Below, piece after piece: positions 6,189-56,577 of a DNA stretch of 64,000 nt. The number at the start of each line of letters is the position of its first letter. The stretch's first letter is position 1. The stretch is from Psammoneis japonica (lineage: Eukaryota), in contig QPGO01000115.1 in the NCBI GenBank assembly GCA_008632985.1, positions 124,001 through 188,000 on the forward strand. The letters are read 5' to 3'. The translations under genes and the position numbers were made by a program. Under the pieces are notes generated by a model. It saw nothing but the letters and a program-made list of their open reading frames with translations. It did not search any database and was not told the DNA's origin.

Positions 6189-7949
6189 ATGATTCTGCTG
6201 TCCCTAGAGTGAGTACGCGCTGAAGGTCTACATGTTCTTTACTCTTTCGCCACAACCTCGATCTTTACATTAAAGTATTTTACCATAGATTTAGAATATA
6301 TTGCTATTATTATACTCTACTACAGCTTCATCAGATAGATATCTGTATCGAGCAACAACATTCTAGTGTGGAGAGTAACAGGAGTGACTCCCCGAGTTGG
6401 CATAAGTTAGCGTGTGGCTCACTGCGTCTGTGCGAGCGCCCTTCTCGCTCTTGGCTCTCACTTTTTCCTCTTCGTCCTCAGACCTCACCACACATTACAT
6501 GAGAACCTTCCATGTTACAAGTGTGGTGTGTCCTTCAAGAATGACTTGGTTGTGGCAATTGCATTTCTTTTTGCTGAGTGCACAGGTTCCCTGTTTTTTC
6601 ATCAGTTTACAGCTCTCTGTTGTGTGTCCAATTTGCAGCAGTTGCAACAACACCTGCAAACTTGATGATCATGCAGTGCTGCATGATGCACAAATTGGCA
6701 TGAGAGGGCAACTGACTGACAGTCTGGCAAGAGCACCAGCTTTTAAAATGTGATGCACTGCTCAGGGGCTTGATTCCTTCATTTGCTTTAAGTCTGGTGA
6801 GAAATGACAAAGAAATGCCACAAACTGACCAGAAACATGTGTCGAACAAAGTGTTGGCTTCTTGGCTTGGCTTGACATGAGTTGGTCTCTTGCAGTGTGG
6901 TCATCATGGATTTGAGACACATGTGCACAGACATTGGCAGATGACAAGGGTTGAATCGGTGTGGGTGCTGCTTTTTGAAATGATGGTTTGTGCCCTTTCA
7001 ATTTGGCTTGCGTCCACAGATGCTCTGGAACTTGCCAGAGGGTGCATGTCTCTTGCACAGACAGCAAGATCCAGGAGCATCCTCTGCAAAAAGCTTTGGG
7101 CATCCATTTCCAAGCACTTGACCGCAGGAGTCAACTCCAAAAATGATGTTGAGCCCATCTCTGCCATGACATGCAGAGCAACACTGTGGCAGGGTTCTGA
7201 AGCACTTCTTGAAGCCAGGATTCAATGATGGTTGAGTCCACAAAGCTTTGGTTTGAGGCAAAGCAATTGCACAGAACATCAAAAGACTTCATGTGCAGAC
7301 ACATCAAAAAAACACCAGTGCAAAGTGACCAAACATCAACGGCACTTGGGCACGTGTCTCTTGCCACTCAAAGACTTGGAAAGCTTCAAAAACTGCTTCC
7401 TCTTGCTTCAAGGTGCCAAGTGGGATCTGTGAGGTGTTTGCAACACCTTGTGGTGTGTCTTCATGACCTGTCAGCTCCATGCAGTGTCAACAAAAACCAA
7501 GGATCCAACTCAAGAGAACTTTGTTGGAGTGTCAGAGAAAATGGCAGAGGCTCACAACAAACACAGCCCAAATGACAGATTTGCTCTGCTTGCTTCAACA
7601 GCCTGCAAAAGAAAGGACACAAAAAAAGCAAAAGAGCTCAAGTCTCCACAGACAACAAGCAAGAGAGATGTGACAATGAGAAACAGAGTGAGTGTTGACA
7701 AGCACTTGACACACTGGACAGAGGAAATGTTCATCTTGCAAGAAAGAATAAAAAAAAACATTGGGCAGCTCCCCATTTCTCACAGCACAGTGCTGCCTTT
7801 GCCCTGTGTGCTGAAAATGAGCAAAAAAGCAGGCTGCAAAGATTGCTGTCAACAACAGACTATTTGTGAGTTGGCACATTGTGCTGTGAAACATTTGGCC
7901 ACACATGAGTTGTGTGCTGCTTTGTGAACACATGTGAGCTCTTCTCCAT

Positions 7950-10130
7950 CCACAAACAAAAGGGTTCATTCCAATCTTGCCACAAGGAGGAGAGGCTCAG
8001 CAAATGCCGCACACCATGCATGATGGTTTTTCTGAGTCTTTGTGTTGCACTTGGCAACATTTTGCAAAGCCGGCTCCTGAGCATGATTCTTGTGCCACAT
8101 GGGTTTGCCCAAGCTGGTGCACAATTGTGCCATTGTGTCTGTTTGACAGACTGGCTGCAACTGCCTTGCTGGGGCATGTGCAGTGCATGGCCCGTTTTTC
8201 AACAAAGCTGCCCACTCCAATTTGTCCATGAATTTTAAAATGCCAACATTGCAGTTGCTTTTCTTCTGTTTTCAAGGTTTGCTCACAAGACCTTGGAATC
8301 TTGTGCAACTTGGCATGGCGCAGCTCATTGTTGTCCCTCAGATGACTGTGGCAGGGGCCATCACCCTTTCACTTGCCCAAAGTGCTGGCAAGCAATGGCT
8401 CACACTTTTCAAGAATGGAGGGCAATTTGTGCTGCTGACATTTGTCCAAGCTTTTGGCATTTTCAGTGATGACTTGTTGCAAGTCTGCTGCCTGGCACCT
8501 GGCACCCAGGGCAGCTGTGATTTGATTGCTGTTGCTTTTCAGCCTTCCTGGCTCTTGGGTGCAGAGCACTGTTTTGCTTGCACAGCATCTGTGCTTTTCA
8601 TCATCATCACCTCACTGTTGGTTGTTGGCAACTTGATGATGGCTCATTTTTGGAGAATCCAGCACTGACTCTGCCAGTCTCCAAAATGTTGTGCCCAACA
8701 ATCATGGCTGCCACAATTTTGCCAAGCTTGCCATCATGCACCAGGTGGGCTGCACTTCCAGGATGATGACCATTTCAAACAACTCCAGAAGCTTGACTTA
8801 AATCTCACAGCACCAGCTCTCATCAAAAACAGGCCAGCAACCATTTTCTAGCCAGTCTTCTCAGTGGCACAAACCCTTCTGCCAGATTTTTTGCAGCTGT
8901 CTGCTGACATGCTGCTGACTCTGCTGTCTGACAAAGCTTTTGTCATTTTTGTTTTGCCCTCACCAAGCTTGGTTTTCAAGGCTGTGAGTGCTGGTGCTGG
9001 CACCACATGCTGCTGCTTGTGCCTTTTTCTTCCCATGACATGAGCATGATTGAAACTTGGCGGCAGATTGTGACAATCATTTTGTGACTGTGGTGTTGAC
9101 CCCCAAATCAACCACCATTGTCTTTGTCTTCAGAGTCACTCACTGGAGGTCACAAGTGGCTGCTTTAAAATTTGTTGAGCTCCTTGATGATTTTTTTGTT
9201 GCACTTGTTTTTCTGCACCTTGAGCACTTTCTGTCTTGGCTGCTGCGCCAGCAATGGCACCTGCTCTTGATCATCCTTTCTCTTTTTGTTTGACTGAGAG
9301 CACCCAGTCTTCAGCCCTGCTCTCTTGACCTGGTGCTTTGAGCTGCAGTGCTCTTTGGTTGAGTGTCTCTGCAATTGATGCTGCACAACATGTGTGTCAT
9401 TTGGCATTTTGCTTGCTGCGTGCAGTTTGTGGCAAGTGACTTGGGGCTGTCTTTTTCCCACCAGTCACACTTGCATGGAACCTTGGTGTTTAGGTTGATT
9501 TGTTAAAGCCACCTTCAGATCTTCAACTTGCTCAGTTCATGTGCAAAAAGTGAGTGGGTTGAAGTCCTGGAAAATCACATCCTTCTGCTGTGCATTTGGA
9601 GCTGTGCACTCAAACAAATCTGCCAGCTCATCATCTGGCAATGGCTCCAGATTGTTGCCTCCTTCAACTTTCAGTGGTGAAAAGTTTTTTGAGCAGCCAT
9701 TCAATTCAACAGCAATTGTGGCACAGCTCTGAGTTGTTTTCATTTCCGTGGGTGCTCTCACATGATTGTCCTCCCGGGAAAGATGCTCTGGTGTGCAGCT
9801 GGGTGCTGGTTTCTGCGTCAAACTCTGCCACCTTGTTGTTCAACATTTTGCATTCAGCCACAACATTCTGACCATGGATGATGCTGCACTCAGAGTTTCA
9901 CAGGAGGAAGAGCTTGCACACTCCATTGCTGGCATGCTCAAGCTTGTGCATCAGACTGTTGTCATCCATTGGCAAGTTGCACAGCTTGCACAACTGGTGC
10001 TTGCCCTTTTGTAATTTCTTCTTCTTGGGAAAACCACAGGGCAGTTGGGGGAGCAATCCTCTTCTTCACAGTGGGAGTTTTTGGCAGTTTAGAAAGCCCA
10101 GTTGATTTTGTCAGTTTCTTCACAGAAGGT
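7950..10130 (-). mobile_element. Degenerate Ty3/Gypsy LTR retrotransposon fragment (gag, protease, start of RT, possible integrase remnant)
   Basis: Gag-like DELADLFECTAPNAQQKDVIFQDFNP; protease-like KALSDSRVSS; pre-RT linker QQHKLPSILEKCEPLLASTLGK*KGDGPCHSHL...HAKLHKIPRSCEQTLKTE; DKLEWAA resembling the Gypsy SEWAAP; many stops and frameshifts. Confidence 0.65.
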
Positions 10131-10149
10131 TTTCATGCACACTTGCAAG

Positions 10150-11900
10150 AGCAACATTGCTGATGCTGTGCCTTGTGTGCCAAAAATCAAAAAGATGAGT
10201 GTCAAGCAGTTGCAAAGATTGCTGCCATTGGCAACTGTTCCTGAGTCTGCTTGCATTGCTGCAAAACAGTTGTTTGCATGAAATGTGCACACTCACCTCA
10301 TGCACACACACAACAAATGTGTCTTGATTCACAAATGAGGAGCTTTGCCTCAAGTTTGTCTTGTTGGCACTCACTGAACAATGCATGATCTGCAGCATTG
10401 TGTGTGGAACCTTCACTCACCACCAGGTGTGACTTTGGGGGCAAGTCAAGTGTCTGACCCTTGTGACACAAGTCACTTGCAGTTGACACACAGTTGTGTC
10501 AATGATGCATCTGCTCTTGACAAAATGAGTGCAAGTTTGAATGGGCTTGTGCAACACACACTTTTGGGTCATGCATCTCCCACTGTGGGAGCCCCACAAC
10601 AGAACATCTGACTGTGTGAACAGAAGACATTGCTGGCATCTGCCACGTGTCAGTGTGGTGCATGCTGCACTGCATCAAACAAGACATTTGCCAACTGGCA
10701 TTTGCCAGCTGCCAGCACAGCGCATGCTGCACCTTGTTGAGATGCAAGCACCACACTGACAGCCCAGCAGCAGGTTTTCTTGATTGCCACACATGCTGAG
10801 CTTTTTCAGGCAACAGCTCTGCAAAATGATGGCCCTTGGTCAACTCACTGTGTGCCCTCTTTCAAAGCCATCAACACAGAGAGTGGCTCTCAGTCACATG
10901 CCTTGGAGGCTTGGGGCTTGGAGGACATCACCTCCCAGCCACAGCTTGCAAAGAAGTTGAGAATGGCAGCCAAAGCAAAACTTCTCCCCACAGCCAAAGG
11001 GCAAGAGATTTTGATCTTCCCCAACCCTCATTTTGACCTTCTTTTAGATGCCAGGGATCTCTGCTCATTTCATTTCAATGATTGAATCTTACAACAGTGA
11101 GTGGCTTGGCCTGACACAAGCACCAATTCTTGTGCTTTGCTTCAACCACAGTGCTTTTTGACACCAACAAAAATTGAGTTTTGTGGTTCAAAAGGCAGGG
11201 GTGGAGCAGTGGTTGACTGAGCTGACACAATCACTTGAGCACAAAGAACAACAACATCTTTTTTCACACTGCACTCCATCCCTCTGCAAAGCAGATGGTG
11301 CAACAGCCAGTGGTGCAGCTTGTGTGGCAACACAGCACACAAAGTGTGCAGACTGCATTTTTTGCAGTTGTTGTGGAGCAGACAACAATTGAAGCTTTCT
11401 GCACAACATTCACAATGGTCCTTGAGCAATGCGAAGTGAAGGGTTCATGACAAGGACTTGACTTTGCAGCCTCTCTTGCTCACTGGCTAATTTTGTGACC
11501 CACCTGAGCACTTCTGAAAAATTCCAGCCTCAGCACTCAAAGAAAACATGAGCAACTGAGTTTGCATGTCAACATTTGCAAAATGTTTTGTGCAAGACAG
11601 AGTCAAGACTCCCTGATGCATGAGGGAAAAAGAAGTGAGGAAGAAGTGGGGTGCCAGAAGCAAGCTCATCAGCGATGCTGCTGGCTGTTGCAACAGCTGA
11701 CAACATCTCTGGCATGTGGCATTTGGTGGTCAAATGAGCATGGACCAAATGACATGATCAACACCCAGCATCAACAATGAAAGAGTGCCACAAATGCTGT
11801 GTGCCACTTTGGATGAGTGCAACACATGTCAAAAAGAACCCCTCTGAAAGACGAGGTTGGCACAAACCAGCTTTGCTGACCCTCACTCATCCAGCAGCTG
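10150..11900 (+). repeat. Copy B of a ~2 kb degenerate direct repeat
   Basis: Colinear with 12760-14690, e.g. TGTGCTTTGCTTCAACCACAG and GGGGTGGAGCAGTGGTTG in both; short related piece at ~7790-7940. Confidence 0.85.
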
Positions 11901-12759
11901 TGACAAAGATTAGCCAACAGCCACAACTGCCTCTCCAGTGATCATGCAGCTTGGATGGCCAGTGTCCTTGGCAGCCCTCCTGTCCTGCATGCAGCTTGTG
12001 GCAAGATGCACAAAGAACAGAGGCAATCTATTTTACACTGCTGTGCATCACTGCTTTGTGCAAGGTGAAGGTTGCAGCACAAGCAACAGATGCTGGCATG
12101 CAGCTTGTGTGGTGGCTGGTGTGCACAACAAAGTGCAGACCAACTGGTGGTGTGCTGGGAGAGTTTGTCAATCCAGGAGCAGGGTCCAGATGTGACAGCA
12201 CTTAAAATGTGGATTTCAGTTCTTCTCTCAAACCACAGCCCACCAAAGCACCAAGGGGTGCTGATGACTTCCACAAATGTTTGAAGATCCTCAAAAATCT
12301 TTTGACAAAATGCAAGATTGATGCTTCCCCAGTGCTGCAGGAAACATGGTTGTGTTGGAACATTGGGGTGTGAGTTGGTTTTTGTGAGACAGAGAATGTT
12401 GCAGCAAATGGCACACTGACAAACATTGATGACATGGCAAATTTACATCATTTGCAGCTCATGATGAGTTGTTGGTCTTGTGCTTGCTTTTCAGCTTCTG
12501 CACCCAGTTGACATGCACAGCAACAGCAGCAGCAGAAATGGGACTCTTGTGGTGCACAAGCCAAAGCAAGTTGGGGATTGGCAAAGCTGGCACACATTGG
12601 CCAGCAAGCCATGAAATCCCAACAGTTTTGCACATGGGTGGACTTGGCACCATTTTGTGAGTCCAGCTGAGCACAATTCTCATGACATGGGTCAGCCCAA
12701 ACTTTTTGCTGGGGCCCAAAAGCTCACTGCCTCACACATCAAATTGGAAGACAAGCATT

Positions 12760-14690
12760 TGGCAGCTGCAAAGATTGCCATTGTTGGTGATTGTGAAAGC
12801 TGTTTTTGAGTTGGCGCACATTGCTGTGAAATGTGAAAACTGTTTGTGAGTCAGCGCATGTTGCTGCAAAGCATTTGGTTGCATGAAATCTGCACTCACT
12901 GTTCACATGCTCTCATGTGCTGAACATCACAACATCTGTCAATGAGGAGCTTCTTTGCCCCAAGTTTGTTTTGGTGCTCAGTGAACACTGCACAGTGCAA
13001 ATCATTGTGTGCAGAGCCTTTGCTTGCCAGAGGTGAGAGACTGCATGGACAAGTCAAACATGCAATCCTTGTGATGTGGGGCACTTGCAGTTGACACACA
13101 GATGTGTCAACATGTCTGCTCACAGCAGAATGAGTGCACAAGTCTAAGTGGGCTTGTGAAATGCACACTTTTGAGTTGTGCATCTCCCACCACTGCTGGA
13201 ACCCCATGACACCAGACACATTGCCAGCATTTGCAAGTTGTCAATGCAATTTGTGCTGAGCCACAGCACACAAGACATTTGCTGGTGACTGCCATCTGTC
13301 AGCACAGCACATGCTGCACTTTGTTGAGATGCAAGCATCACACCAACAGCAGCAGAATTTTCTTTGCCACACATGCCAAGCTTCTTCAAGCAACAGCTCC
13401 ACAAATGAAGGCTCTTGGCCAACCTGCTCTCTTGGCCACAGACTCAGGGCTCAGGGTTTGGAGAAAGCATTCCCACAGGTTGTGAAGAAAATGAGAATGG
13501 CTGCCAAGTCAAAACATCTCCCAAAATGTGCAAGAGATTTTGATCTTCACAAACCCTCATTTTGACCTTTCACAAGGTGCCCTCTCTTGCAGATCATTGC
13601 CCTTTCTTTTTCTTGATGATTGAACCTCACAACAGCAAGTGTTGACTTGGTCTCTCCAGCGACACTGGTGCTGATTTTTGTGCTTTGCTTCAACCACAGC
13701 ACTTTTTGACCAGCACACTAGATTGATTTGCCAAGAGTTTCAGATCAAGTTTGGTGGTTCAAAACGTGGGGGTGGAGCAGTGGTTGGCTGAGTTGACACA
13801 GTGGCCCGTGCATGCTGAAAACAAGGGACTCTTTTTCACACTGCACATTGTCGCTCTGCAAGAGACATGGTGCAACAACCAGCAACACAGCTTGTGTGGC
13901 AACACTGTGTGCACAAAGTGCGCAAGCTGCATTTTTCATGGTTGTTGGAGCAGGTGGCAGTTCTGTTGGAACTTTGTGCACAACATTCACAGTGTGGCTG
14001 TTGAGCAACAATTTGCAGGTTGCAAAAGTGAGGGGTTCACAGCAAGAGCTTGATTTTGCAACCACTCTTGCTCTCTGGATTGTTTTGCCACCTTTGGCCT
14101 GTCATTCAACATTCCTTTTGAGCACTGTGTGCAAAATTCCAGCTGCTGTGTTCAAAGAGAATGAGCAGCTGAGTTTGCACTTCAGTGTGTTTCTTGCAAC
14201 ACAAGAAACAAGAAATGAGGCACATCTTTGTGCAAGACAAAGTCATGGCTGATTTGTGAGAGAGAAATGAGAACAAAGTGGAGTGCTGGAAGCAAGCTTG
14301 ATTGTGACACACTGGCTGTTGCAACAGCTGACAATGTCTCTGGCATTTGGCGATCTCAAAGTGGTCAAGTCAGCTGGCGAGTGAGCTGCTTGAAGTGAGG
14401 AGCGGGGGTTGCTTGTCCATTTTGATTGCAGAGACTGCAAGGATTTGTGCAAGGTTGAGCTGTTCAGTCCCAGTCTCCCAATTGTGACACAGAGCTCTCA
14501 TCCACATTTTTCACATGTCTCGCACCTTGTTGTTCAAGCCACAAGCAGCTGGTGCAACAAATCAAAGCCCGGCATCAACCACGAACAAAGAGTGCCACAA
14601 ATGCTGTGCACCTGAATCAGACAAGTGCAATGCATGCCAAGGAGAGTCCCTCTGAAAGATGAGAGGTTGGCTGCGACAACCTTGAGCGAT
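12760..14690 (+). repeat. Copy C of the ~2 kb degenerate direct repeat
   Basis: Colinear with 10150-11900; its 3' part (14230-14640) aligns with 14903-15310. Confidence 0.85.
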
Positions 14691-14708
14691 CCATGGCGCA
14701 AGAAGTCG

Positions 14709-14778
14709 ATTTTGCAACCTGCTCTGGCTCATTTTTGCAACCTGCTCTGGCCTCTGGCTCATTTATTTTGCAACCTGC
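14709..14778 (+). repeat. Short tandem repeat TTTTGCAACCTGC(TCTGGC) x3
   Basis: Directly visible; lies at the right boundary of the depleted block. Confidence 0.85.
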
Positions 14779-14902
14779 AATCTGTCGTTCAATAATCACT
14801 TTCAATGTTGTATACATATAATTTTATATACATTCAAAGAGAATGAATAATAAGATTTTTATTTCAAATCTTCAGAAATATAAGAGAATGCTCTATCTTC
14901 AC

Positions 14903-15310
14903 GCAAGACCCAGTCGTGACTGATTTGTGAGAGGGAGAAGTGGAACGAAGCGGGTCTCACAGTCAAGTGGGAGCAAGTTCGATTATAGCGACGCTGACTG
15001 TTATAACTAACAACGTCTCTGGCGTTTAGTGTTCAGAACCACTAATTGAGTAAATACACTGCTTGAAGTGAGTAGGGATTGCTTGTCTGTTTTGATTGTA
15101 GAAACCACGAGGATAAGTGCAAGTAGATTGAACTGTTCCATCACAATTTCAATCGTGACAACTATGCTAGTTCACGTTTCACTTTCATGACTCACTCATC
15201 TTGTTGTTCAAAACGCGTGATCAGCTGCAACAAATCGATACCCGGCATCAATCATGAAGGAGTGCCGCAAGCACCATTTACCCAACTTGAACGATTGCGA
15301 TGCATGCCAA
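14903..15310 (+). repeat. TA/CG-retaining partial copy (D) of the same repeat, overlapping the start of the downstream ORF
   Basis: Aligns with 14230-14640 and 11590-11830. Confidence 0.85.
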
Positions 15311-16879
15311 GCTTGGGTGGCCAGTATAGCTTATAACAAGCGTCAAAAGACCACTCGTCATTCTGAACACATCGTTCCACACCATACGGATGAAAGTGGT
15401 CAGAAGAATCACGATGAAAAACATCGTAGCTGTGCTCAGCTACTAGTACAAGCTGAACTAGGCGTCCAAGCTACACGAAGCGTTGAAAGTCAGAAATCCG
15501 ATGATTCCGTCGATCAGTATTTGAGGAAGGCCGAGATAGATACGGACGAATCATCGTTTGCTAGTGAGAGGAAAGGAGATGATGGAGATGATTCCTCTTT
15601 TAGCTCTGAAGAAAAGAATGACGATGACCCTGGTTCCGTTGCTACGGCCGTTAAGGAGGCCTCGACGTCTAACACCGCACTGCCTACTTTAGACGATGCA
15701 GGTTTGAAGGAACCCGAGGCTAATGACAGCAAAGCCTCAGGATCGAAAACGATTCCAGACAACTGCGTCGACCTGTCCTGTACAGACGTTGAACAGCAGA
15801 ATGCAATCACGAAGAAAGAGCTCGAAATTCGAAAGACTGTGTTCACGGAATCACAGATTAGTGATGGGAAAGACATAATGAACGAGGAGCAGTACGAAAG
15901 TATGGTGAAAGAGTTGCGTGCCTTTGCAAAAGAAGAAGGTTTAGCTGAGCCCAAATTTCTGCTCAATTCAAAAGAAGTGAAAAAGATCCAAGACAGCCAT
16001 GTCACGCTTGGACATCCCGGCATGGGGAGAAACCGGGATCACACTAGAGCTACCGAGATGATGTTTGACTACCTAAAGCAGAGGCCCCATCGAGAGGGAA
16101 TGAAACAAACCAGCATCGGAAGAAACACGAAAAAGGAGGATAAATTCAGTCCGTTTGAGACTTGGATGAGAAAGGAAAAAGAGAGATATGGGATTCAGGA
16201 GGATATAGTTTTTTTGAGGAAGAAGTACTCACTATCCGAAAGAAGTCAGGAGACAGAGGAATGGCCTGAAAACAAAATCGAGCCTGGGACAGAGGGAATA
16301 TATTTCTGGTCGGATCCTAAACACCCTGAGTTTGGTATCGCGACTCGCCTTGCGTTGGTAACTCACCGATTTGACATACAGCGTCAAATCTCGGATCAGG
16401 CACCAGGACAGACTATTGCGCAAGAGCCTCCAACTGAAGCACTGGCGAGGACTAGTCCTATTGAAACTAACGACGAATCAAGTTTCGGAGGCGACGGCTC
16501 GACAATGGAGATGGAGGACGAAGGGAAGCAGCCGATTTTGGAAGACGAGGACAAGCGGTCAAGTAATACCGATTTCAAAGAGAACTCTCGGAGCACAGCG
16601 GATGGTGGTGCGTCCTTGCACGAGAACAACGGGAATCATTGCATCGAGGTTGAAACCAACTACGGTAGACATGAAGACGAACGGAAAATGCGAGCTTGGC
16701 TGGATGTCCACCAGCTCCCGCAGTCCACGGCAGATATCTTGTTGGAACTGGGTGCTCGATGCGTCGATGACGTTTTGATGTTGGTGCAGGAAATGCCGGA
16801 GCATTTGTCGAATTTTCGTCCTCTGGATCTGCTGAAACTCAACAGAGCTGTGACTCAGCGCATGATGGGTTCACCGTAA
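15254..16879 (+). CDS. Unknown acidic protein with C-terminal SAM-like domain
   Basis: 541-aa ORF with normal composition; C-terminal MRAWLDVHQLPQSTADILLELGARCVDDVLML...LDLLKLNRAV resembles a SAM fold. Confidence 0.55.
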   Translation: MKECRKHHLPNLNDCDACQAWVASIAYNKRQKTTRHSEHIVPHHTDESGQKNHDEKHRSCAQLLVQAELGVQATRSVESQKSDDSVDQYLRKAEIDTDESSFASERKGDDGDDSSFSSEEKNDDDPGSVATAVKEASTSNTALPTLDDAGLKEPEANDSKASGSKTIPDNCVDLSCTDVEQQNAITKKELEIRKTVFTESQISDGKDIMNEEQYESMVKELRAFAKEEGLAEPKFLLNSKEVKKIQDSHVTLGHPGMGRNRDHTRATEMMFDYLKQRPHREGMKQTSIGRNTKKEDKFSPFETWMRKEKERYGIQEDIVFLRKKYSLSERSQETEEWPENKIEPGTEGIYFWSDPKHPEFGIATRLALVTHRFDIQRQISDQAPGQTIAQEPPTEALARTSPIETNDESSFGGDGSTMEMEDEGKQPILEDEDKRSSNTDFKENSRSTADGGASLHENNGNHCIEVETNYGRHEDERKMRAWLDVHQLPQSTADILLELGARCVDDVLMLVQEMPEHLSNFRPLDLLKLNRAVTQRMMGSP

Positions 16880-18130: not shown

Positions 18131-18173
18131 AAACTTCATGGAGTGTGAGTTATCAGCATCGGCGTTTCGTATC

Positions 18174-21287: not shown

Positions 21288-21508
21288 AACACTTCCACAA
21301 GGACCGCGTACACCGTCGGGAGAATCGAATCGCTCGGGAGAGTTGGCGCCTTTCGATCTGCTACAGTATCCTGTCCGGTGATTTGCTACAGAAGCCGAAC
21401 ATCATAAACAACAATATAGAGTTTGCTAAACTAGCTGTTTTCAGAGCGAGTGCAAACGAACTGTATGCAGTTCATAAAGTTGCTACAATTCCTACTGCCT
21501 GTGCCTAT

Positions 21509-41499: not shown

Positions 41500-41504
41500 G
41501 TTTC

Positions 41505-44700: not shown

Positions 44701-46404
44701 TGAGTTTCCTGTCAATGCACACAGGCACAAAAAAGCATTTTGAGACGAGTTTGAATTTGTTGGGGGGTTCAATGTACGACATGGATGCAGGAGAAATGAT
44801 CCGTTTGCTGTCTGAATCAATTGCACACGTGCATTTGAGAGTGATCCACTGTCTGCACAGGAGTGACCCTCTCCACTGATGCCCCCCCCCNCTTCTCCTG
44901 CACACACACACACACACACACACTGGGAGAATCAAAAGCCTGGTAAAAACAGGATTGAAGATCTTCTGGTGCAAGAGAGAAGTGGTGAGAGTCATGACTG
45001 CCAGATGGACAGACAGCAAAACAGAAACAATGTGTCCATTTTTGCGTCCGACACCATGCAGTCATCCACTCGTTAAACCAATCAATTGCATCGCCAACAA
45101 TTGACAGACTGGGAGATTGCTCAGAGCATGAGTGGGCAGCAAATCGGGAGGTCTGCCGGGATGATGCCAGAGTGCACTGTCGGGAGGCCGTCCAGACCCA
45201 GTCCAATCCAAGAGGAAATCAGGTGGGTGACTGGAGCAGCACCAATTTGGCAGCAGCAAGTTGCCAGAGAGCAGCCAAGGTGACAGCTGACAACAACTCC
45301 AAGCAGTGCAACCCCCCCACAATGGGAGGCTTGCAACATTGGCAGGGTTGAGGCCAGCAGAATCCGAGACAATTGACTTCCCAGAAAAGTCAACAGATTC
45401 ATTTGCCTTGTTCGTGGTGTGCAGAGAAGCCATCTGCATGTGGTGCACAGATGGAAGCTTGTGCCGTGCAACAATTTGATGAGCATCAAGGGAGTGCATT
45501 TTGATTGAACCAATTGCTTGTTCACAATGCACACTGTTGCTGCTCGGTCAACAGCAACACCAGCTTTCTTGTGCTCAATTGGCTTGCCAAGTTTGTCCAA
45601 AGCAATCTTAAAAACAGCCAATGGGTCAGTCTTGACAATTCTCAGAAAAAGAACAAGGGTCAACTGGTGGAGTGGTCACCAACAGAGTGGCAGCATGGGT
45701 GGGGGCATCAACTTGGCATGAGAAATTCTGGGCCCACGTGCATCCGTGGCTGGACGAGGTGGTGACAGCCTTCTGGGAGCATTGGAAGCATTGGAGGCTG
45801 GAATGTGGGCAAGTTCCAGGTCAATGGTGGTGGTGGCAGCAGATGGAGTTGTTGCTGTTGGGTGCAACTCAATGACAGGGCAAGTTGTGTCATGTGCAGT
45901 GGCAATCGCGGCGGATGGAGCAGATGTGGCTGAGGGTCCGCATGGGGTGTCGGCTGCAGCTGCAATCAGCAAATTGCCATCTTGAGCTGGTGCCTGGGAC
46001 AGAGCTGCCTCAACGATAATTTTGCTCGCCAGAATGACACCGTCGTCAAATGGGTGCCATTCACGGGGGCCATCACAATGTTTCATTGCGCTCAAAGAAA
46101 TCAACTGCACACGGGGCAGTTGATGTTGGATCTTTGATGGCGCACATCACGCAGGATTGCTGCGCAAGCAGAGTGTGTGCCATGCCACACGCGAAACGTT
46201 GGTTGATGATGCCAACAAAAGCGATGAGAGGAGAATGATGATGAGTGCACCGTTTGCGCCGATGGAGCGAAAGTGTTTGCATTGAAAATGCTCACTGCCG
46301 GTGTCGACAATGACGTGCTGAAGGTGTTTTGTTGTTTTGCGATGTGGCATGGCCCCTCCTCGCACTGAGCCAAAGCGAGGCTCACAACCTGAGAGTGATG
46401 CACT

Positions 46405-49400
46405 GTGTCATTTAGTCTTGGTGCCAGAACCCCGGGACTGATCCCTGGTTTTTGAAAATGCGGGTTTGAACCCCAAAATGAAAATGCGGGATTGAAACCC
46501 GGGTTTTTATTCACGCAGCTCGCAGTGCTTTTTCTGCATAATTTTGCCATTTCTTAGAACCCAATGTGACTTTGCTTCCCGGTTCTCATGGAAAATAGAT
46601 CACTTGATCCACTGCATGGCTGCTGCTGCTTGCAATGTTGAACAAAGAATTTAACATTTTATGTGGTGTTGCTGTCCTGCTGTTCAACAATGAGACTTTT
46701 GATGTGATTTGCATTCCATCTCTTCACCGCGATTGATGGTGGTGTCCAATCAGTCTTGCGTTTGTTCAAAGCAGCTGAGTGTCTTCCCTGCCAAGCCCAT
46801 GCAACAGTGCATCATGACAGTCAAGGAAACAGGTCTTTTGCTGCTTGCACCTTGGTTGGCAGGGAAGTGCAATGGTTTCCCACACAGGTCGCAACTCAAG
46901 TGCGAGTCTGCCCCGCACCAAACACAGACCCTTGGATGCTTGTGGCTGGCAGACACCGCATCAAAGTGACAACATAAATGTGGCACACTGTGACATGGAA
47001 GAGATTCATTTCCACCCTGCTGAGCGTGTTGGCGCATTGTTCTAATGTCACAAAATTGTCAGCTGTCGTCGTTTGTTCCAAAGCCGCTCTTCGTTGATGG
47101 TTTTGTTGCATTGTGACTCGCATTGCGGAGTCACCATGGCACAGACGTGCTTTGGGGTGACACTGCAGCATTTGTCTTGAGAGTTGGTCTCGGAACTCCC
47201 AGTGACCCACTGGACTGTCATCTTTCCAAGACAAGTCCAACCCACCCTCTGCCACTTCCAAACAAATGTCACATGCAATGACAACAGCCATGGCCTTGCC
47301 TTGGTTCACAGCAGAATGCCAACACTTCCAAGAACGACAGAACATCTTTGCATTTTTGATGCAATGATCCATTGAATCAATTCATGAGCAAGATGAAAGA
47401 TGCAGATCACGGGCTTCATTCATCTTGATTGCCCAGTGTTGCTTGCTCTCGTTTCTGCCCCTTTCCTGACACCTCACATGTTTGTCACACTCGTTGAGGG
47501 CATTCACAGCAGCAATGTTGCACGACAAGGTTGATTGAAATGAGCAAAGCACACGTTGGCATCCCTCAGCACTGCGTGTGGGCACCACAGTCTTGACAGC
47601 AACAATCGCATCATTGAACCTTGCTGCTTTCGATCTTGCATCCGATGGTGTTTGTTTTTTCTGAAAGCACTTCCCTGGCACACCCGAAGGGAGCCGATCC
47701 CTTCAACGTGCAAATGTGGCCGCATGGCCATTTTCTCCAATCCAGCCTGAACTGCAGTCAGCGTCAAAGCAGTTGTCACATGTTGCGTGTGGCTTTCCTT
47801 GGAACATCTTCTTGGGTCCGGCGTCATCACCCATTCTGCCATGATCCACCATTTCGCCTGCTTGTTCCAAGATCATGTGAATTTTCGTCGGGCCCATGGC
47901 ACCCCATCCATCTGTCCTTGGGTGCAATTTGTGTCGGTGAACACAAGCCCGAGGTTGGATCTGGTGCACACCCGACATGATCACTGTCTGACCACCCTTG
48001 GTGATGCCAGGCTTTCCAGCCATGCGACCGGCAATCCCGCCACCAGCTTCACCACAACCCGCATGGCCCCAAGTGGTTTCATCACCACATTGATCCAACT
48101 CTGCATGGTGTGTCATGCGCTGACATTGTGAACTGTTGTGCCGCGAATGTCGTGTCACACTTGCAGGCCGGGTTGCACCCAGCTTCTCCTCTTCTGGGGG
48201 ATGTCATGTTGTTGCATGGCTTCAGTGCTCACTTCATTTGAAGCCAATGTGAATGACAAATTGATGAGGACACATCTGAGTCACAGTTGGATCCATCAGC
48301 CATCCACCTGCGGTGAATGGCTCCATCACCACTGCCACCCTTGATGTCATCTCGGACAATCACTCCATCAAATCTGACAAGCTCCTGGATGCTCACAAGT
48401 TTGAACTGGTGTCCATGCAATGAGCATGGCTTCAACTCTCATGCGGCACAAAATTTGAACATGTTTCTACTTCACTGTAGAACGACTTTCTGGGGTCTGA
48501 GTTGACACCCGAATGTGCAGCATCACACATTGGTGGAATCAATTGACAAAAAACAAAGCATCCCGATTTTTCATCCACTCAGCATTCATTCCCAATGATC
48601 GCAACATGTTTGCATCCAATGATCCTTTCCTCATTGCTGGAAAGAGGTTGCCTTTTGATGCACCCGATCTGTTTGGCATTGACAACATCAAATCCTTGTC
48701 AGCAACATCATCACCAGACATTGACCTGTCCCATCCTGACAAAAGAACTCCCATTCATGGAAAATTCTCTTCCCTTCTGAATTCTCAGGCACTGGTGCGG
48801 TGCCAGTCGGCAAGCTGTGATGAATGTGCCAATGGGAATCTTTCGAAAATGACCCGTGACATAAAAAGCATGAAATGATTGGTGGACGCCTGCAGAATCT
48901 GCACGTTTTTGTGCTGAGGCTGTTGTGTTCACACAATTTGTGCAAAAACAGACTTGACTGTCATCGGGTCAGGTGCATTTTTGCAAATGCATTGAAGAAA
49001 AATGCACCTGATCAGAAAACAGTCAAGTCCATTTTTTTCGCAAAGTTAAAATTCACTGAGGACAGACAGACAGACTTTTCAACAATTGTCTTGGTGCTGT
49101 TCCACACATTTCCACGTAAATGACTCTAAAGTGCGAAAGATTGCCATTGCTTCTTCTCCCCTCTTGCCTCAAACTGAGGGCAGAAAGCACATCTGCTCCA
49201 CCCTCCGGGATTGTCCACATTGGCAAATGGTGGCTCCCCCTTGTCTGCCTTCATTTCAGGCAGCTGCCACCCTTCAGGAGTGCCTGGAACATTCAACTGC
49301 ACTGACGGGTCACGCTCACCAAGGTGCAGCAGCAAGGCAGCATGGTCATTGTCAGCCACAATCTGTTCATCACTGTCTTGGTCCACAACACGCGATCTCA

Positions 49401-50033
49401 ACCGTTCCAAATGGGCTTCAGCACGAGCTCCATCAATGTCGCTGACATTCTCATGCTCTTCGTCACTGTCACCACCATCTCCCATCTCTGTCTCATCCTC
49501 AAGGACATGCCTGGGGTTCACCAGTTGGTCCTCCACAGCTGCGGGACCAAAAGTCTGTGGCCGTCATGTGCAGTGGTGGCCCTGGTTGTTGTGCTGCCAT
49601 TCCACCAAACGCTTCATTGGTGCTTGCAGAGGTGGCCATCTTTGTCACGACGTTGATGCTCTGATTTGCTGAGCGTGTTGCTTTGATGACAATGGTGGTG
49701 GCTGCGGTTGTTGTGGTTTTTTTTTTGCAGTCATCGGCTTTTCAACGCAGACTGAGGTGACATTTCTGCGGTGGTGCGTCACTGCAAAAAACCTGGGATT
49801 CAGCCCCCGAACACCCCGGGTTTCAAGCCCACTCTGGTGACGACAACAAAATGCCAATGTAACTCCAGCCATTTCACATGTTATTTGAAGGGTGAACAGT
49901 CATTGGCATCTAGTCAAAACCTTCTGAGTGATGATCATGTTTGTTTGATCTTTCCATTTGATGGCCAATGGCTGCCAGTGGAAAACCCAGGACTGAATCC
50001 CGGGTTTTTCGGGGCACCCAGACTAAACGACAC
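46405..50033 (-). mobile_element. piggyBac-like DNA transposon with terminal inverted repeats and degenerate DDD transposase (~46750-49735)
   Basis: TIR GTGTCATTTAGTCTTGGTGCC (46405) vs GGCACCCAGACTAAACGACAC (ends 50033); catalytic-like GDETTW, TCDNCF, IDSMDH; C-terminal Cys-rich CVWCG...CDLCG; in-frame stops and frameshifts. Confidence 0.8.
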
Positions 50034-50187
50034 CAGGAATGACCCTCTCCACTCTCCACAAGCTCTCCACTCTAGCCAGTCTAACAATTTCAATGCTGGC
50101 AAACCACTTCAGTCACCCCTCTGTCTTTCCCACAATGAGGCTCTCTCATTTTCTCCTTGATTTGCTCTTCCACCCGCTCATCATAAA

Positions 50188-51681
50188 ATGGATGGAACTT
50201 GCGAAAGTTTCTGATTTGACGGGTCAAGAGGCTTGCACCCATGTGAAGATGGCTCCGGGCGACAGTCCAGAGGTGCATGGCTAAGTCTTTCACATGCCTG
50301 CTGGAATGGTGTTGGAAATTGCAAACTCATGTCCAAAGCTCAGGCGTGGACGATTGCCAACCACTGCAGCGCAGTTTCCCTTGCGAGTCAGCAACTGGTG
50401 TGAGTGGTTGGATGGTCACTCGAGTTGGGCTGTGCCAGAAGATTGCCGGCGATTGATCATGACGACAAGATGGTCCAGGTGACATGAGTGCACACATGCA
50501 GAGAATCATGGCCAGCAATTTCTACAAGCACTCGTTGGACCATCCGAAAACTCAGCTGTCAAAAGTGTTTGCTCACCCATCCTTCACAAGTTGAAGTCAT
50601 TTCAGGATGCAGAAACCTGTCAGACGCTGGGAGACAAACTCTTTCTCCTGAAAGCAGAACTGCAAAAAATTCACACCAGCCCTGCAAAAGAGAACCTCGA
50701 TCGCTTGATTGACGATTCTCCTGACATTCCAATGGTTTGGCGCCTGCTCACAGTCTTTGCTGACACCAGACTCGATGCCCTTCACGATCAAGTTCTCGCT
50801 CCCACCATGGGCTGGAGACATCACTGTCATGGATGTCACTTCATCTGCCCCACGAACAGTGCCATGTTTGGACCACAGGACATTTCTGCCATGGACATGA
50901 TGCATCTGCACAATGAAGGTGAGCATCTCTTGCCATCCAAAAAGTGCAATGTTCGCTCTCTTTTGCACAAAAAGGGTGACAGACTTGGATGTGTTTACGA
51001 CGGCGGTGACCATTGGAGGCATGTTGTCATGGTCCTGGACGTCCTTGACAAGGGAGCTGAACTGAAGGCTCGAGCATGAAAGAAGAAGCCATCCGGACAA
51101 GCTGGACCCAACGCCTTGGTGCTGACGAGACTGTGAATGTCAAGGGAAACTGTCTCATTTTGGGAGAAATCAATTGTCCTCCTGAGGACAGCAGAGGCCC
51201 ACCAGAAGTTGGAGAATGCCATGCATTCCTTCACAAAGGGAAGAACTTTGCTGTTTCTAACCACAACAGTGTCAATTGGAATGACCACGGTGTCACCAAA
51301 CCATGCGAGTTTGACCTTGAAGCCCATCAGCGGCGCTTCCAACAAGCTGTGGGATCATGCAAGAGCAGCTCAAGTGGGCATTTGCAGTTCATGACTCCAA
51401 TGCAACCTGGATTCTTGGGCTTCAAGGCTGGTTTCCTGATGGGCAAATCTGGCAAGAAGGGCCGCGTTGTGCTTGAAGACCATCAAGGTCCGTGTTCCGT
51501 GGAAGTCATTGGCAAGTCATGCCCCAGCGGCACTTGTGCAAATTGTGGCAAACAGGAAGGAAGCAATGCTGCTCCAAAGCTGTTTGATTGCAGTCCTTGG
51601 TGCAAATCTGCTGCCTGCTGTGGGAGATCTTGCCAAAGGGATCATTGGAAAGAGCACAAGAAGGAATGCAACGCCAAATGA
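50188..51681 (+). pseudogene. Degenerate MYND zinc-finger protein gene
   Basis: CANCGK...CSPWCKSAACCGRSCQRDHWKEHKKEC; upstream frame broken by stops. Confidence 0.7.
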
Positions 51682-54600
51682 TGGCAGAGAGAGAGAGAGA
51701 GCGACAAGTGTGAATGAAACATTTTACATCTAATTGCCTTTGCAATGATGCTGGGACTCTGCTGCAAGTGGTTGCCTTTCATTGGTTGTCAGCATGGTCA
51801 ATGGTTGCATGATGTTGACACAAAAACAATCTCATGGTGATGGGCCAATGTTGGGTGTGTTTCGCAGCTTGTCCCAGTCCACAACCCGGTCGCCTCCATT
51901 GCAAGGAACTGCTGCGAAATCAAAGCACGCACATTTTGTCATTGTTCCCAGGCTTTGGGTTGCCGTTTTGGTGCTTCGTCATCATGCTTCCTTCCTTAGA
52001 ATTCTTTTCCAAACACACACGCATGTCCAATGGCCATCGCTCCACCCTGTCCAAGGATGGGCCTGGCAGGATGAGAGACCAATCTTTTCACATGTGGCAG
52101 TGCCTGCCACCACATAAATTCACTTGGCAACATCATGATTCCACTGCTGAAATGGCAGCACCACCAAAACAAGATCCGCAGGAAAACAAATTGACTCCGC
52201 AGGGTCCAGCAGGCTCATGCCTGCGACTCAATGATCTCACTTCCATTCCTGGAAGCAGTTCTTTGCACTCTGCATCAGCATTGTCCCGCCATTCCCAATT
52301 TCGTGGCAATGTCCATGCATGCTGACCCAAAGTCCCAAGCCTTGGCAACAAAGGTCTGTCTGAGCTTTCCACCCTGGAGCAAAAACACAGCATCAACTCC
52401 ATCTCCACGGTCAAAATCAAAGCAATCACCCACGTGTTCATTCCTGTCATTCTTCATCCAAGGCTTTTTGAGATTTGATCCATCCACTTTCTTGACCTTT
52501 GCACACCCCCATTTGTTTCAAAATGAATCTTCACAGACATGGCGCCTTTTAGGGAGAAACAAGACGCGACTGCCGTTGGATTTCAGCACTGTCTTGTCTT
52601 TGCCATTGCCAACAACAAACAAAGCCGTGGCCATGTGTTGAACCATTTGGTGCAACATTTGCCCCAGATGGACTTCATCATCATGGATGGCCATTGTGTG
52701 CCCTTTGCTTTGAACAACTTTTCTGGACCTCTCATTGCAGCAGGGTTGCCGAGCTTGTGCATGAAGAATCTGATGGGTTCACATGTTGATCATTTGTTTT
52801 TAACAATGCTGCTGGATGAAGAGGCATTTGAGATTGGCAACATGCTTGGGGTGAAAAAATGTGTGGCAGAAGAAAGTTTGGAAGTGCATGACAGGAATTG
52901 CTTGCTGTCTTTTAGAGTCCGGCTTTGCAAAACGGAAAGTAAAAAAGGCCGTGGACGAGGTGAATGCATCATGCATTGCCAAAATGGCATCCATGCAGGC
53001 TTCAGACCGAGCTAAAAATCGAGTCATGGTGCACTCTCATCCTTTGGAACATTGGTGGTGATTGCTTGGTGACTCCAAGCTTTGTGTTGGTTTTCCATTT
53101 TGCTGAGAAGTTGGCAGCCAAGAAACTGTGTTCCAAGGTGGCTTTGCACTGTGCCTGAAGAATGAGTGTGAACGAAAGTAGAACAAAGTGCAAAAAGTGG
53201 AAATTGTGAGATTAAATTTTGCTCTGTGATTTTTGGTTTCTCTGAATGAGTTCTCAATGGCCCAAAGCTTTTGCACTGCTTCTGCAGACAAAAGGCCTTT
53301 CAGCAAATGCAATCATGACAACAGATTGTCGGGATGCGATTGCCATTGACATGCAAGATGACAACATTGTCATTCAATTGCATTTGCAATTTTCAACTTC
53401 CAATCAACTCTGTGTGATCATTCTGTCCTTTGCATGCATCCACGATTGTGGCATGATTGACATGTGTGTGATGCACGATCACACACATGCACACAACAGT
53501 TGCATTTTGCAGCTTCAAGGTTGCAGAGTGCAAGGCAGGATGTGGCACCACTCATGTCTCACGATTGTCTTCCAAAATGGGTTCTGCCCTTTCCCCTTGC
53601 ACACAAAACAGGGCAATGACATCCTGGGAGTTTTCAAACATTCCCGGCTAAAATGCTGCAAAGAATCCTCATTGGCAAAACAACCAACCTTCATGTGCTC
53701 AATCCACATCTCGCTGCACCCGCTTGGCATGCCACTGCTGGAGATGCGGCAAGCCGAAAACACACTGGAAAAGTGCAAAAAGAAGCTGCAGGTTTCGAGG
53801 AGAATGGCAGCATCGTGGAAGAAGTAAAGAAAAGCAAGGGTCCATTTCATCCTTTGGAAATTTTGTGATCACCTGTGTCATTTCACAACCATTCACTCAC
53901 TGTGTTGCTGAGTGTTGCACCATCATCGTGAGTGACATTGTGGTCATGCATCTTCCTTTGTTCCAGTTCCTTGACCTCTTGCATCTGCTTGAGAACAGAT
54001 CCTGACTTTGTGCAGGTTGGAACTCGTCACACAGGACCATTGTTTCTACCTCCTGCTCCTCTCATTTGATGCCTCTTGCCAGACCCTGACTTGGCACGTG
54101 GCACAGGATGACGGCAAGGACCATCTTCTTCAGAGGCAACACCATGTCATCCAGTCCACCTGCACCAGCAGTGAGAGAAGCCATTCTGCTCTTGGCTCTT
54201 GCAGGTGCATTCCTGGCAGCATCATGCACAGCACTCAACATGTGTCACCAGACTTTTGCCTTCGAGCAGCCTTTTTTGTTTTAGCGCCATTTCTTCATGC
54301 ACACGCCTTGCCTTTGTCTGCCAGAGGGAGACACAATCAGATCATCATTGCTTTCCGGCAAAGTGGCAGTGAACTCAGAGCCAAACTCTTCTGCCTGTGC
54401 AGCCGCCAACCTGCTTTCTCTGGCTTGCTGCAGTCTCAACATGGACGACACTGGTGCTTCACCATCTGCCTTTGCAGGCCTGAATTCAGAAGACTTTGTT
54501 CTGCCAGGTGCTCATCTTGTGAAATTTGCCTCTCCACTCTTTTTTCTTGGGAGTGGATGATGCTGAACTCGCTCCCACTCTCAGTGCATTGTGGTGGTTT

Positions 54601-55912
54601 TCAGCAACTTGGTCCATTTTTGTCTGCAAGCTCCTCTGTGTTGTCTCACTCTGCAGAAGCCACAAGGGATGCATCCACCAAAGATTCATCCTTGTCGTTC
54701 GATCCAGTGTTCAACAAAGGCATGATTGCGGGCTCACCAAGTGTTGCATTGCATGAATCTTGTCCGCTCTTCAACAAACCTCTGTGATGCTTTTTATCTC
54801 CCGTCAAATCATCTTCCTCGTCCTTGCAGAAGCATTCTTCGTCACCATTGACACTGGTCAGCATGGTCAGGGCCTTGCTCTCCTCTGAACAATGGCCTCC
54901 ATTGTTTCCATGGTTTGATCTGCAAGACTTGATGCAACACATCCATGTTGACCCCACCTTGCAGGAATGTCAGAACTGATGCCAGGCAATGCACAGATGA
55001 AAGGAGACAAGCCATTGTGGCTGACACATCGCCACAGGCATCTTCCTCATCTGCTGGTCCGTTTCTGTGGATTCCTCCATGCGCTCCCCCATGTGAGCAG
55101 CATTGCTCTGATGGACTGCAGTGCAATCACATGGAATGGCCAAGAAACGTCAAAAATGCTTCTGACACAAAATTGACAACAAACCATGAATGATCCTTGA
55201 CATCCAGCCCTGCATCTCTTCAAATTGACAGTCCAAAAAGGTTGTTGGGACAAGGTTGCACCCCTTTACATTTTCTTTCATTTTTCCTCAAGGAAGCACT
55301 CTTCAATTGAGGTTGCATCACATGGAGCACTGAGCATTGCCAGACCAACAGCAGATGGGTTCCAGTCCTAGCTGGAGGTGGGACTCCGTGTGACATTGGG
55401 CCCGCAGAATTCTGCGTGCAAGCTCCGCAGCAAATTTATGCTGCAATGAAAATGTGTGTGATCGCCAAAACAGAAAAAGAGACAATTTTACGAACGCATC
55501 TCCTCCTTCACACAGCACTTGTGGCACATCATTGACAGCTTGCCCGGGCACATTCTTCAGACATTAAAGAACATGCCCAGTGTGTTTTCATTGGCTTCGC
55601 AAAACAGGGAGCATGAAACAATTTCGTAGAATGTCACACGTAGAAATGTGCATGCACGACATACGACGCGATCCAAAAAACTGTTCGATGTCACAGTTCA
55701 GCAGCACGAGGTCCCACCCAGAGCTGGAACGCGTCAGCATTAAAAAAATCATCCGGGCCTGCTGTGGAGAAATGCATCAGATGCATCCTCTGTGGGCCTT
55801 GCCTTCAAGGCTGTTGTGTTCATGTCATTCAAACACATTGTTGTGAGCTGCTGAGGAACAGCAGATTGCATGAGGCGCGGGTTGTGTTGAACCAACGAGT
55901 TTGCGATTCATC

Positions 55913-56445
55913 ATTTTGGAAGCGGCGCCTCGCAAATCGTTGTGTGCTGATGGAGGGAAACTGTGTCTCTGGCAATGCAAGCCTTGTCACGATCTTTGAG
56001 TTGGCAACTGCAACAAGAGATTTCAGGTTTGAATTGAAACTTCATCTCTGGTGATGTGAGTCATGCACTGGTCATGGAGCAACTGACCATGACGTGATGC
56101 CGGCGGGCGACACCTCGCCCCCCACTGTGCAAGAATTTGAATGTGTTGTCAGAATTGTGACAACTGAAGTGAAATTCTGCAGCAGTCGCCAGCAGTGCTC
56201 TCCAACAAAAGAGCAGCAGCAGCATGGGTGCATGAGCTGACCCCCCTTGTCCCCAACAACAGCTCAAGAGCCCCTCAAGCTGGGATGCCATCAGTGGCAA
56301 GTTGGGCATGCCACCACGCCACACTGGGACATCTCCAGCCATGATGCAGTGGCTCCTGGGATGTCTCTTCTCCTGGGCATCGCAGCTGTGTTGCTGTGTG
56401 GAGCATGACAACTTCGTTGAGAGCGGCTGCTCCACAAGCAACAGC
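55913..56445 (+). repeat. Right, TA/CG-eroded copy of the Lhcf upstream region, directly upstream of panE
   Basis: Aligns with 41505-42510. Confidence 0.85.
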
Positions 56446-56577
56446 ATGTTTCCACCCCCCAAGATGTCTGCACGCCCCTCCGTTTTGAACCTCCTTTTTT
56501 TCCGCTTTCCGCGTCACCATGAGCACCGCAAGGCGCCCATAAAATTTCCAGTCTCCAGTCAAATTATTGATCGCATA

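Follow-up and report, generated by a model that had tools for sequence, protein, structure and literature searches.

A 64,000-nucleotide stretch of the diatom Psammoneis japonica genome (assembly GCA_008632985.1, contig QPGO01000115.1, positions 124,001 to 188,000 of the forward strand; hereafter the window) contains three blocks in which the dinucleotide TpA has been almost completely erased from both strands by mutation of A:T pairs to G:C. Sequence comparison demonstrated that this change is restricted to the blocks, was made in place, prefers TpA followed by a pyrimidine and is accompanied by conversion of CpG to TpG or CpA. The signature appears to match, at the level of sequence, the TpA hypermutation measured directly in integrated viral DNA of the chlorarachniophyte Bigelowiella natans (Mettrop et al., bioRxiv 10.64898/2026.01.13.699255, preprint dated 14 April 2026, cited here from its main text). 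The blocks are probably segments that were hit, after their arrival or duplication, by region-restricted TA to TG/CA mutation, for which DNA adenine deamination by an ADAT2/TadA-like enzyme is the likeliest route, in addition to CpG decay.

Composition was profiled in 1-kb windows across the whole 64 kb and expressed as the ratio of observed to expected dinucleotides (o/e). Two compositional states were identified: the majority of the DNA had TA o/e values of 0.4–0.8 with CG near 1, and three stretches had 1–9 TA per kb, were CG-poor and had TG/CA o/e values of 1.6–2.1. The blocks and the background are as follows:

1–760, block B0: 3 TA, o/e 0.08; 13 CG, o/e 0.25
about 6410–14763, block B1 (pooled over 6600–14750): 23 TA, o/e 0.04; 38 CG, o/e 0.08
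41799 to about 56450, block B2 (pooled over 41810–56400): 69 TA, o/e 0.07; 335 CG, o/e 0.38
background, 39.4 kb: 1488 TA, o/e 0.55; 2228 CG, o/e 0.99

These results agree with a first-pass annotation of this DNA, which had described three blocks with near-complete TpA loss beside normal neighbours, and the edges lie close to those it proposed. Were TA as dense in the blocks as in the background (37.8 per kb), B1 would contain about 308 and B2 about 551. TG and CA o/e was 1.47–2.26 in the blocks versus 1.14 in the background, and TG and CA were equally frequent (990/974 in B1 and 1572/1580 in B2). Depleted TA (0.04–0.08) with raised TG/CA (1.5–2.3) thus extends over 0.76, 8.3 and 14.6 kb. The G+C content of the blocks is that of the background, as CpG decay offsets the TpA change. 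B1 is the furthest advanced block; TA was lost about twice as fast as CG in B2 and at an equal rate in B1.

Block edges were sharp to approximately 100 bp, lying between 722 and 765 on the right of B0 (which continues beyond the left end of the window), at about 6409–6496 and 14763 for B1, and at 41799 and about 56400–56540 for B2. Composition was normal everywhere else in the window. Non-ORF DNA outside the blocks (ORF, open reading frame; 18 segments, 10.9 kb) had TA o/e 0.64 and CG 1.10, and four introns recognised from GT..AG joints in sequencing run X2 had TA 0.67 and CG 1.07, indicating that the blocks are not merely the neutral DNA of a generally biased genome. The confinement of the process to the blocks that had been proposed earlier therefore holds for non-coding DNA as well.

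Plain self-comparison of the window found few repeats. Recoding to purine/pyrimidine, which masks transitions, lifted in-block repeat identity from 66% to 83–86% and extended two pairs with one copy inside and one outside a block. The repeats compared were:

10169–11861, + strand: in-block repeat copy 1, in which the gene at 15254 is represented by a decayed promoter, 5′ end and first codons
12728–14671, + strand: in-block repeat copy 2, 66% identical to copy 1 in four letters and 83–86% ignoring transitions
14763–15311 (unmutated) and 14080–14671 (mutated): pair P1
41495–41800 (unmutated) and 55900–56175 (mutated): pair P2
40127–40542 and 40570–41001: control direct duplicates in DNA of normal composition, 85% identical
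61545–61937 and 62849–63229: control direct duplicates in DNA of normal composition, 77% identical

The direction of the change was read from P1 and P2. The 29 TA of the outside copy of P1 had become 11 CA, 10 TG, 2 CG and 6 others, with no TA left, and its 19 CG had become 12 CA, 5 TG and 1 other, with 1 CG retained; transitions outnumbered transversions 132:33. In P2, none of seven TA was kept (3 TG, 2 CA, 1 CG, 1 TC). Substitution rates were pooled over both pairs and counted per strand, so that the ceiling for each strand is one half. A>G changes affected 34/71 adenines at TpA compared with 19/126 at ApA, 29/119 at CpA and 15/99 at GpA (34/71 versus 63/344 elsewhere; Fisher p = 7e-7), and C>T changes affected 28/71 cytosines at CpG compared with 4/50 to 19/118 in other contexts. 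This enrichment in the TpA context, together with the TA still present in the unmutated copies, upholds the earlier proposal that TpA was lost by mutation and was not missing from related sequences to begin with.

The 3′ neighbour of the adenine also influenced the outcome, with A>G at 12/14 T-A-C, 12/24 T-A-T, 5/13 T-A-G and 5/20 T-A-A sites (T-A-C versus T-A-A, p = 0.0013). Residual trinucleotide frequencies in B1 relative to background followed the same trend (TAT 0.02, TAC 0.03, TAG 0.09, TAA 0.20), the greatest gain being that of TGC/GCA (2.27-fold). The TA surviving in B1 were enriched in TTA and TAA, 15/23 having a 5′ T and 11/23 a 3′ A in comparison to 21–22% in the background. Since these block-wide counts need no ancestor and give the same order of contexts, they agree with the T-A-pyrimidine preference of the pairs. 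A>G at ApA was at baseline, and AA was not depleted in the blocks (o/e 1.20–1.24).

Comparison of copies 1 and 2 placed the mutation after the duplication. Among 324 TG/CA sites, 255 were concordant and 69 discordant between the copies; a discordant site needs two adjacent transitions and is expected where one ancestral TA or CG was resolved independently in each copy. By implication about 43% of TG/CA in these copies arose after duplication, where 40% is predicted if all TA and CG at background frequency were converted. The two control duplicates had 2/36 and 1/31 discordant sites and retained 15/22 and 6/8 TA. Independent resolution of TG/CA thus indicates that mutation happened in place. 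Outcomes on the two strands were equal and showed no runs (z of −1.85 to +0.64 block-wide, −0.72 at the 69 discordant sites and −0.4 in P1); runs tests across blocks, P1 and discordant sites revealed no strand-coordinated mutation clusters, with the power of such tests being limited once sites are saturated. Such equality of the strands makes both an RNA intermediate and transcription-coupled exposure of a single strand less likely.

The consequences for coding sequence were visible in one decayed gene of B2:

50192–51678, + strand: full-length pseudogene of a PRiA4_ORF3 + zf-MYND protein, with a frameshift near 51070–51076 and stop codons at 50282 (TAA) and 50480 (TGA)

Alignment with its eight best homologs (466–510 aa, 38–49% identical, none with an informative name) showed a single Tyr in the pseudogene, compared with 15–22 in the homologs. 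At the 12 columns with Tyr in at least six of the eight homologs, the pseudogene had Cys six times, His three times and Tyr, Phe and Gly once each. Other conserved columns were kept (Trp 7/7, Pro 10/10, Lys 5/5, Leu 13/14). The 48 differences at 164 conserved columns comprised 11 single TA>TG/CA changes, 8 CG>CA changes, 5 other single transitions and 24 transversion or multistep changes. The pseudogene is therefore otherwise well preserved while its TA are nearly all gone.

Recognisable block content consists of this pseudogene and of decayed copies of the 5′ end of a neighbouring gene, in keeping with the pseudogene half of the earlier description of the blocks as relics of transposable elements (TE) and pseudogenes. 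The TE half was not confirmed: in a domain scan, none of 195 block ORFs gave a match to a reverse transcriptase, integrase or transposase (78 B1 ORFs of 55–89 aa lay outside the scan). The 264-aa ORF at 53993–54787 had no homolog, with Atlas scores of at most 0.83. The PRiA4 ORF had no match in the 'longer' protein length class, and a search of viral contigs with the PRiA4 protein gave just six distant PRiA4-domain matches (22–32% identity). Among the longer stop-to-stop ORFs of B2, nearly all of those at 44200–48203 are on the minus strand and nearly all of those at 48501–54787 on the plus strand, a layout that suggests further decayed genes in divergent arrangement. B2 also contains a single N at 44891.

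Read support was assessed over positions 1–20000 with independent k-mer contigs from DNA run X1 (depth about 62). Contigs spanning 1289–8302, 8278–12514 and 12485–16499, each one or two letters off the assembly, crossed both B1 edges without bubbles, so that the reads carry the block sequence of B1; reads with normal TA would have refuted the first-pass annotation. The sole letter differences between assembly and reads in B1 were TA>CA at 11911 and CG>CA at 13661. B0 was heterozygous in X1, with two haplotypes distinguished by eight half-depth substitutions at 537–722, six of which were signature-type: TA/CA at 700, TA/TG at 722, a two-letter CA/TG swap at 557–558, CG/TG at 537 and CA/CG at 677. 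Two of the three TA of B0 were heterozygous with CA or TG. Given that both the haplotype differences in B0 and the assembly/read differences in B1 are of signature type, the mutation process seems to be recent or still active.

Summed X1 contig depth reached 249 at 12007–12673 in comparison to about 65 nearby, and several short contigs end or join near 12374–12602; this short piece of B1 seems to be repeated elsewhere in the genome. Run X2, labelled 'DNA?', behaves like a transcriptome, its contigs skipping 1618–1717, 15067–15225, 17548–17653 and 17834–17924 with GT..AG ends. X2 contigs leave 6671–14674 uncovered, which is not taken as evidence of silence because contigs cannot show absence.

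The features at the edges of B1 and B2 were as follows:

14763–15311, + strand: unmutated copy of the B1 repeat unit, which begins exactly at the B1 edge and supplies an expressed gene with its promoter, first exon, intron and first codons
15254–16879, + strand: flanking orphan gene, 541 codons from the first ATG, of normal composition and expressed
41495–42427, + strand: left terminal direct repeat of B2, unmutated at 41495–41798 and mutated in the remainder
55900–56331, + strand: right terminal direct repeat of B2, mutated over its whole length
41596–41802: CpG-dense stretch, 22 CG in about 200 bp, abutting the left edge of B2

The unit with the orphan gene's promoter, 5′ exon, intron and first codons occurs twice in B1 in decayed form, and an RNA-like joint at 15067/15225 (GT..AG, run X2) falls within the unmutated copy. 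The mutated state of B2 starts about 300 bp inside its left repeat, directly after the CpG-dense stretch, which looks like an unmethylated promoter island acting as a stop. Both edges, at 14763 and 41799, look as though they coincide with active promoters. Because the edges lie at apparent promoters and an adjacent twin was spared, targeting by chromatin state would fit these sequences better than targeting by homology. A search for barrier elements at the edges found no tRNA gene and only one unrelated tandem repeat. An extremely TA-rich stretch (6266–6408; 21 TA in about 140 bp, partly spaced by 5 bp) lies directly outside the left edge of B1.

In mutation-accumulation lines of B. natans, 231 of 302 new substitutions fell in two integrated viral regions, and 230 of these 231 were A>G or T>C changes placed on TpA (210/211 in an insert from a nucleocytoplasmic large DNA virus, NCLDV, and 20/20 in a virophage insert), at about 6e-7 per site per generation in the inserts; 124 clusters of TpA-poor, CpA+TpG-rich windows were identified genome-wide, and the authors proposed an ADAT2-like deaminase and a role in defence (10.64898/2026.01.13.699255). 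The P. japonica blocks share with that system A>G/T>C change on TpA to TpG/CpA, discrete regions, both strands and a clustered TpA-poor, CpA+TpG-rich footprint, and they pass by a wide margin the thresholds given in the preprint (Rho TpA ≤0.43, CpA+TpG ≥1.52). The two cases differ in lineage, a diatom as opposed to a chlorarachniophyte, and in extent, as the blocks are near saturation (TA o/e 0.04–0.08) whereas the NCLDV insert stands at 0.45. The rate was measured directly in B. natans, and is inferred here. The 3′ pyrimidine preference found here is not described in the main text of the preprint, whose supplements may hold trinucleotide contexts.

Our literature search found no description of TpA hypermutation in diatoms, the only account being that of B. 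natans, in which diatoms are not mentioned in the main text. The first-pass annotation knew of no description of such a process, a statement that this preprint has overtaken, and the blocks described here extend TpA hypermutation beyond B. natans to one other alga so far. The same signature in a diatom means that the process is not peculiar to one chlorarachniophyte. Before that preprint, targeting of A:T>G:C mutation at TpA to selected regions of the genome by the cell itself was not known from any eukaryote.

Several better-known systems resemble parts of the signature. Repeat-induced point mutation (RIP) of ascomycete fungi converts CpA to TpA, raises TpA, lowers G+C and mutates both copies of a duplication. 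The blocks resemble its products in their saturating, context-specific transitions that disable discrete segments and in their sharp compositional boundaries beside normal genes, but TpA is erased and G+C unchanged, and 14763–15311 and 41495–41798 were spared while their partners were mutated. Decay of methylated CpG produces CG>TG/CA on both strands and can explain the CpG part of the signature; it cannot remove TpA, which in B2 has been erased further than CpG (0.07 versus 0.38).

Two further candidates were considered. Mutagenesis by Pol eta at WA, which the first-pass annotation had listed as a candidate, predicts A>G at both TA and AA and fits poorly with ApA at 19/126 and an undepleted AA. 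ADAR hyper-editing fixed through retroelement copies shares A>G change with a 5′ U preference, but it predicts marks on one strand, whereas here TG equals CA, strand runs are absent and mutation occurred in place after duplication. ADAR is a metazoan enzyme with a 3′ G preference, the opposite of the pattern found here.

The closest enzymatic parallel is with tRNA adenosine deaminases, which always encounter A34 after U33, so that a TpA preference would be built into a DNA-acting relative of ADAT2/TadA. The loop context of the bacterial TadA substrate is UACG, and early TadA-derived base editors prefer YAC. A natural substrate with A after U (and, in bacteria, C at +1) fits the order T-A-C > T-A-T > T-A-G > T-A-A observed here. 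The activity of such enzymes on double-stranded chromosomal DNA is unproven, and ADAT2 is a universal housekeeping enzyme whose presence alone would prove nothing. The main text of 10.64898/2026.01.13.699255 cites reports of ADAT2 acting on DNA, among them a trypanosome ADAT2 with A as its target in RNA and C as its target in DNA; action of a single enzyme on both bases thus has a precedent.

Taken as a sequence of events, the mechanism we favour would begin with DNA segments that arrive or are duplicated at the locus and then undergo region-restricted mutation. The A:T pair of TpA is replaced by G:C, with TG or CA as the product depending on the strand hit and T-A-pyrimidine as the favoured context. 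This change is at least 10-fold faster than at other A:T pairs and has gone almost to exhaustion, so that the TA left are mostly in the poor context TTA/TAA. Chemically, the most likely route would be that an ADAT2/TadA-like deaminase converts adenine in the DNA to hypoxanthine; thymine-DNA glycosylase can remove T opposite hypoxanthine, leading to insertion of C (available text of PMC4041421). CpG decays to TpG/CpA in the same blocks, as expected if they were CpG-methylated like silent repeats of other diatoms; DNMT5a is the enzyme that keeps transposable elements CpG-methylated in Phaeodactylum (available text of PMC9998398). Targeting would follow a silent chromatin state that ends at active promoters, and the role would presumably be to disable unwanted DNA.

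This can be extended to an ancient genome defence shared by diatoms and chlorarachniophytes, and so perhaps by the whole SAR group (stramenopiles, alveolates and rhizarians), in which a silent-chromatin-directed ADAT2-type deaminase would hit adenine at TpA and (methyl)cytosine at CpG, with active promoters as hard stops. We regard this extension as speculative and rather doubtful; if it were true, every Tyr codon and most Arg codons would be destroyed in unwanted DNA.

A number of observations weigh against the deaminase mechanism or narrow its base. The changes were polarised on only one pseudogene and approximately 770 aligned bases from mutated/unmutated pairs, and the 'unmutated' copies have evolved too, which inflates the baseline and is a possible source of some TG/CA swaps (13/80 in P1). 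Transitions were also raised without a 5′ T at ApT (25/83) and ApC (19/81), indicating that specificity is not absolute. The X1 reads and the assembly derive from one sample, and there is no record of the platform used for that run. The searches of block ORFs turned up no hallmark of a virus or TE, whereas the targets in B. natans are integrated viral DNA. CpG is massively erased here, in contrast to a B. natans spectrum that is almost exclusively AT>GC and a preprint main text that makes no mention of CpG; the CpG component of the blocks may be a separate, methylation-driven process. Finally, no such block was found in 80 mostly diatom-like metagenome loci around Sec61-alpha relatives (345 kb, 1266 windows), a small and gene-proximal sample; 35 of the 1266 windows had TA o/e <0.2, all of them G+C-rich (0.57–0.76) with normal CpG.

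Among the alternatives to adenine deamination, the one that survives best, although we consider it unlikely, is that a TET/JBP-type oxidase of 5-methylpyrimidines modifies T at TpA and 5-methylcytosine (5mC) at CpG in silent DNA, with the oxidised bases (5-hydroxymethyl- and 5-formyluracil, 5hmU/5fU; 5-hydroxymethyl- and 5-formylcytosine, 5hmC/5fC) mispairing or being misrepaired to give T>C and C>T. One enzyme would then explain both erased dinucleotides, which are both self-complementary pyrimidine-purine steps and can both be written as a pyrimidine switch (TA>CA, CG>TG). In dinoflagellate DNA 5hmU prefers TpA, and 5-formyluracil mispairs with G. Sequence by itself does not distinguish A>G on one strand from T>C on its complement. 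We know of no TET/JBP-type enzyme or oxidised base in this organism. The rates of TA and CG loss, twofold apart in B2 and equal in B1, do not require a single agent, and B. natans shows TpA change without CpG change in the main text of the preprint.

Somewhat less likely again is that no dedicated enzyme is involved and that silent chromatin gets little mismatch or base-excision repair, or is patched by an error-prone polymerase, so that polymerase errors and 5mC deamination accumulate there as transitions. In support of this, all transitions are common in the blocks (transition:transversion ratios of 132:33, 39:10 and 305:103) and CpG decay is the classical outcome of methylation. General accumulation does not account for the loss of nearly all TpA when only 15–24% of other A:T pairs changed in P1 and P2, nor for a B2 pseudogene in which five non-signature single transitions were found at 164 conserved codons, yet 11 of 12 Tyr were lost. 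The WA motif of Pol eta predicts loss of AA, which at o/e 1.20–1.24 did not occur.

A homology trigger resembling RIP, in which duplication marks DNA, perhaps through the RID-related DNMT4, and a mutator acts on repeats, ranks lower still and is improbable. B1 does contain two copies of a unit of at least 1.7 kb, and direct repeats stand at both ends of B2; the DNMT4 of diatoms falls in one group with fungal RID, has no known function and occurs in 31 of 60 diatom species surveyed (available text of PMC9998398). The 549-bp copy at 14763–15311 is nevertheless untouched beside its mutated twin, as are the first 300 bp of the left repeat of B2 whose partner is mutated, and over most of their length B1 and B2 are present just once in the window. 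The preprint main text describes the B. natans target as single-copy, and RIP chemistry makes TpA, the opposite of the pattern found here.

We consider it very improbable that a neutral bias acts genome-wide, with selection keeping TA and CG in functional DNA and the blocks being the sole neutral DNA of a compact genome. Block edges do match the ends of expressed or conserved genes, but non-ORF background DNA (TA 0.64, CG 1.10) and the introns (0.67, 1.07) are normal, and the background duplicates have retained most of their TA (15/22 and 6/8). Least credible of all is a sequencing, base-calling or assembly artefact at modified bases, since, although the platforms are not on record and the supporting run shares its sample with the assembly, depth-62 read contigs give the same sequence over both B1 edges without bubbles, copies also differ by indels and transversions, the codon-level changes of the pseudogene are consistent with real mutation, and a one-strand modification that alters pairing would give half-and-half reads at every site, which were not seen.

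The blocks make visible the long-term end state of TpA hypermutation, in which genes lose essentially all Tyr codons and are otherwise readable. Any enzyme put forward for the process has to show the same 3′ pyrimidine preference. Diatoms are a dominant ecological group, and if model diatoms with knock-out tools share the signature, both the enzyme and its targeting signal become testable. Such blocks also escape homology-based annotation of repeats and genes, and purine/pyrimidine recoding, with its gain in identity from 66% to 83–86%, may help to annotate them.

Outside the blocks, the orphan gene at 15254–16879 encodes an acidic product with an N-terminal Cys-rich motif that had no Pfam family and no usable Atlas match; it could be a live member of an unrecognised mobile family. 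A 60-bp tandem repeat is present in 2.8 copies at 39654–39824. Protein similarity also places the organism among diatoms, its methylthioribose-1-phosphate isomerase having its best named matches in Ditylum and Eucampia, at 66–70% identity.

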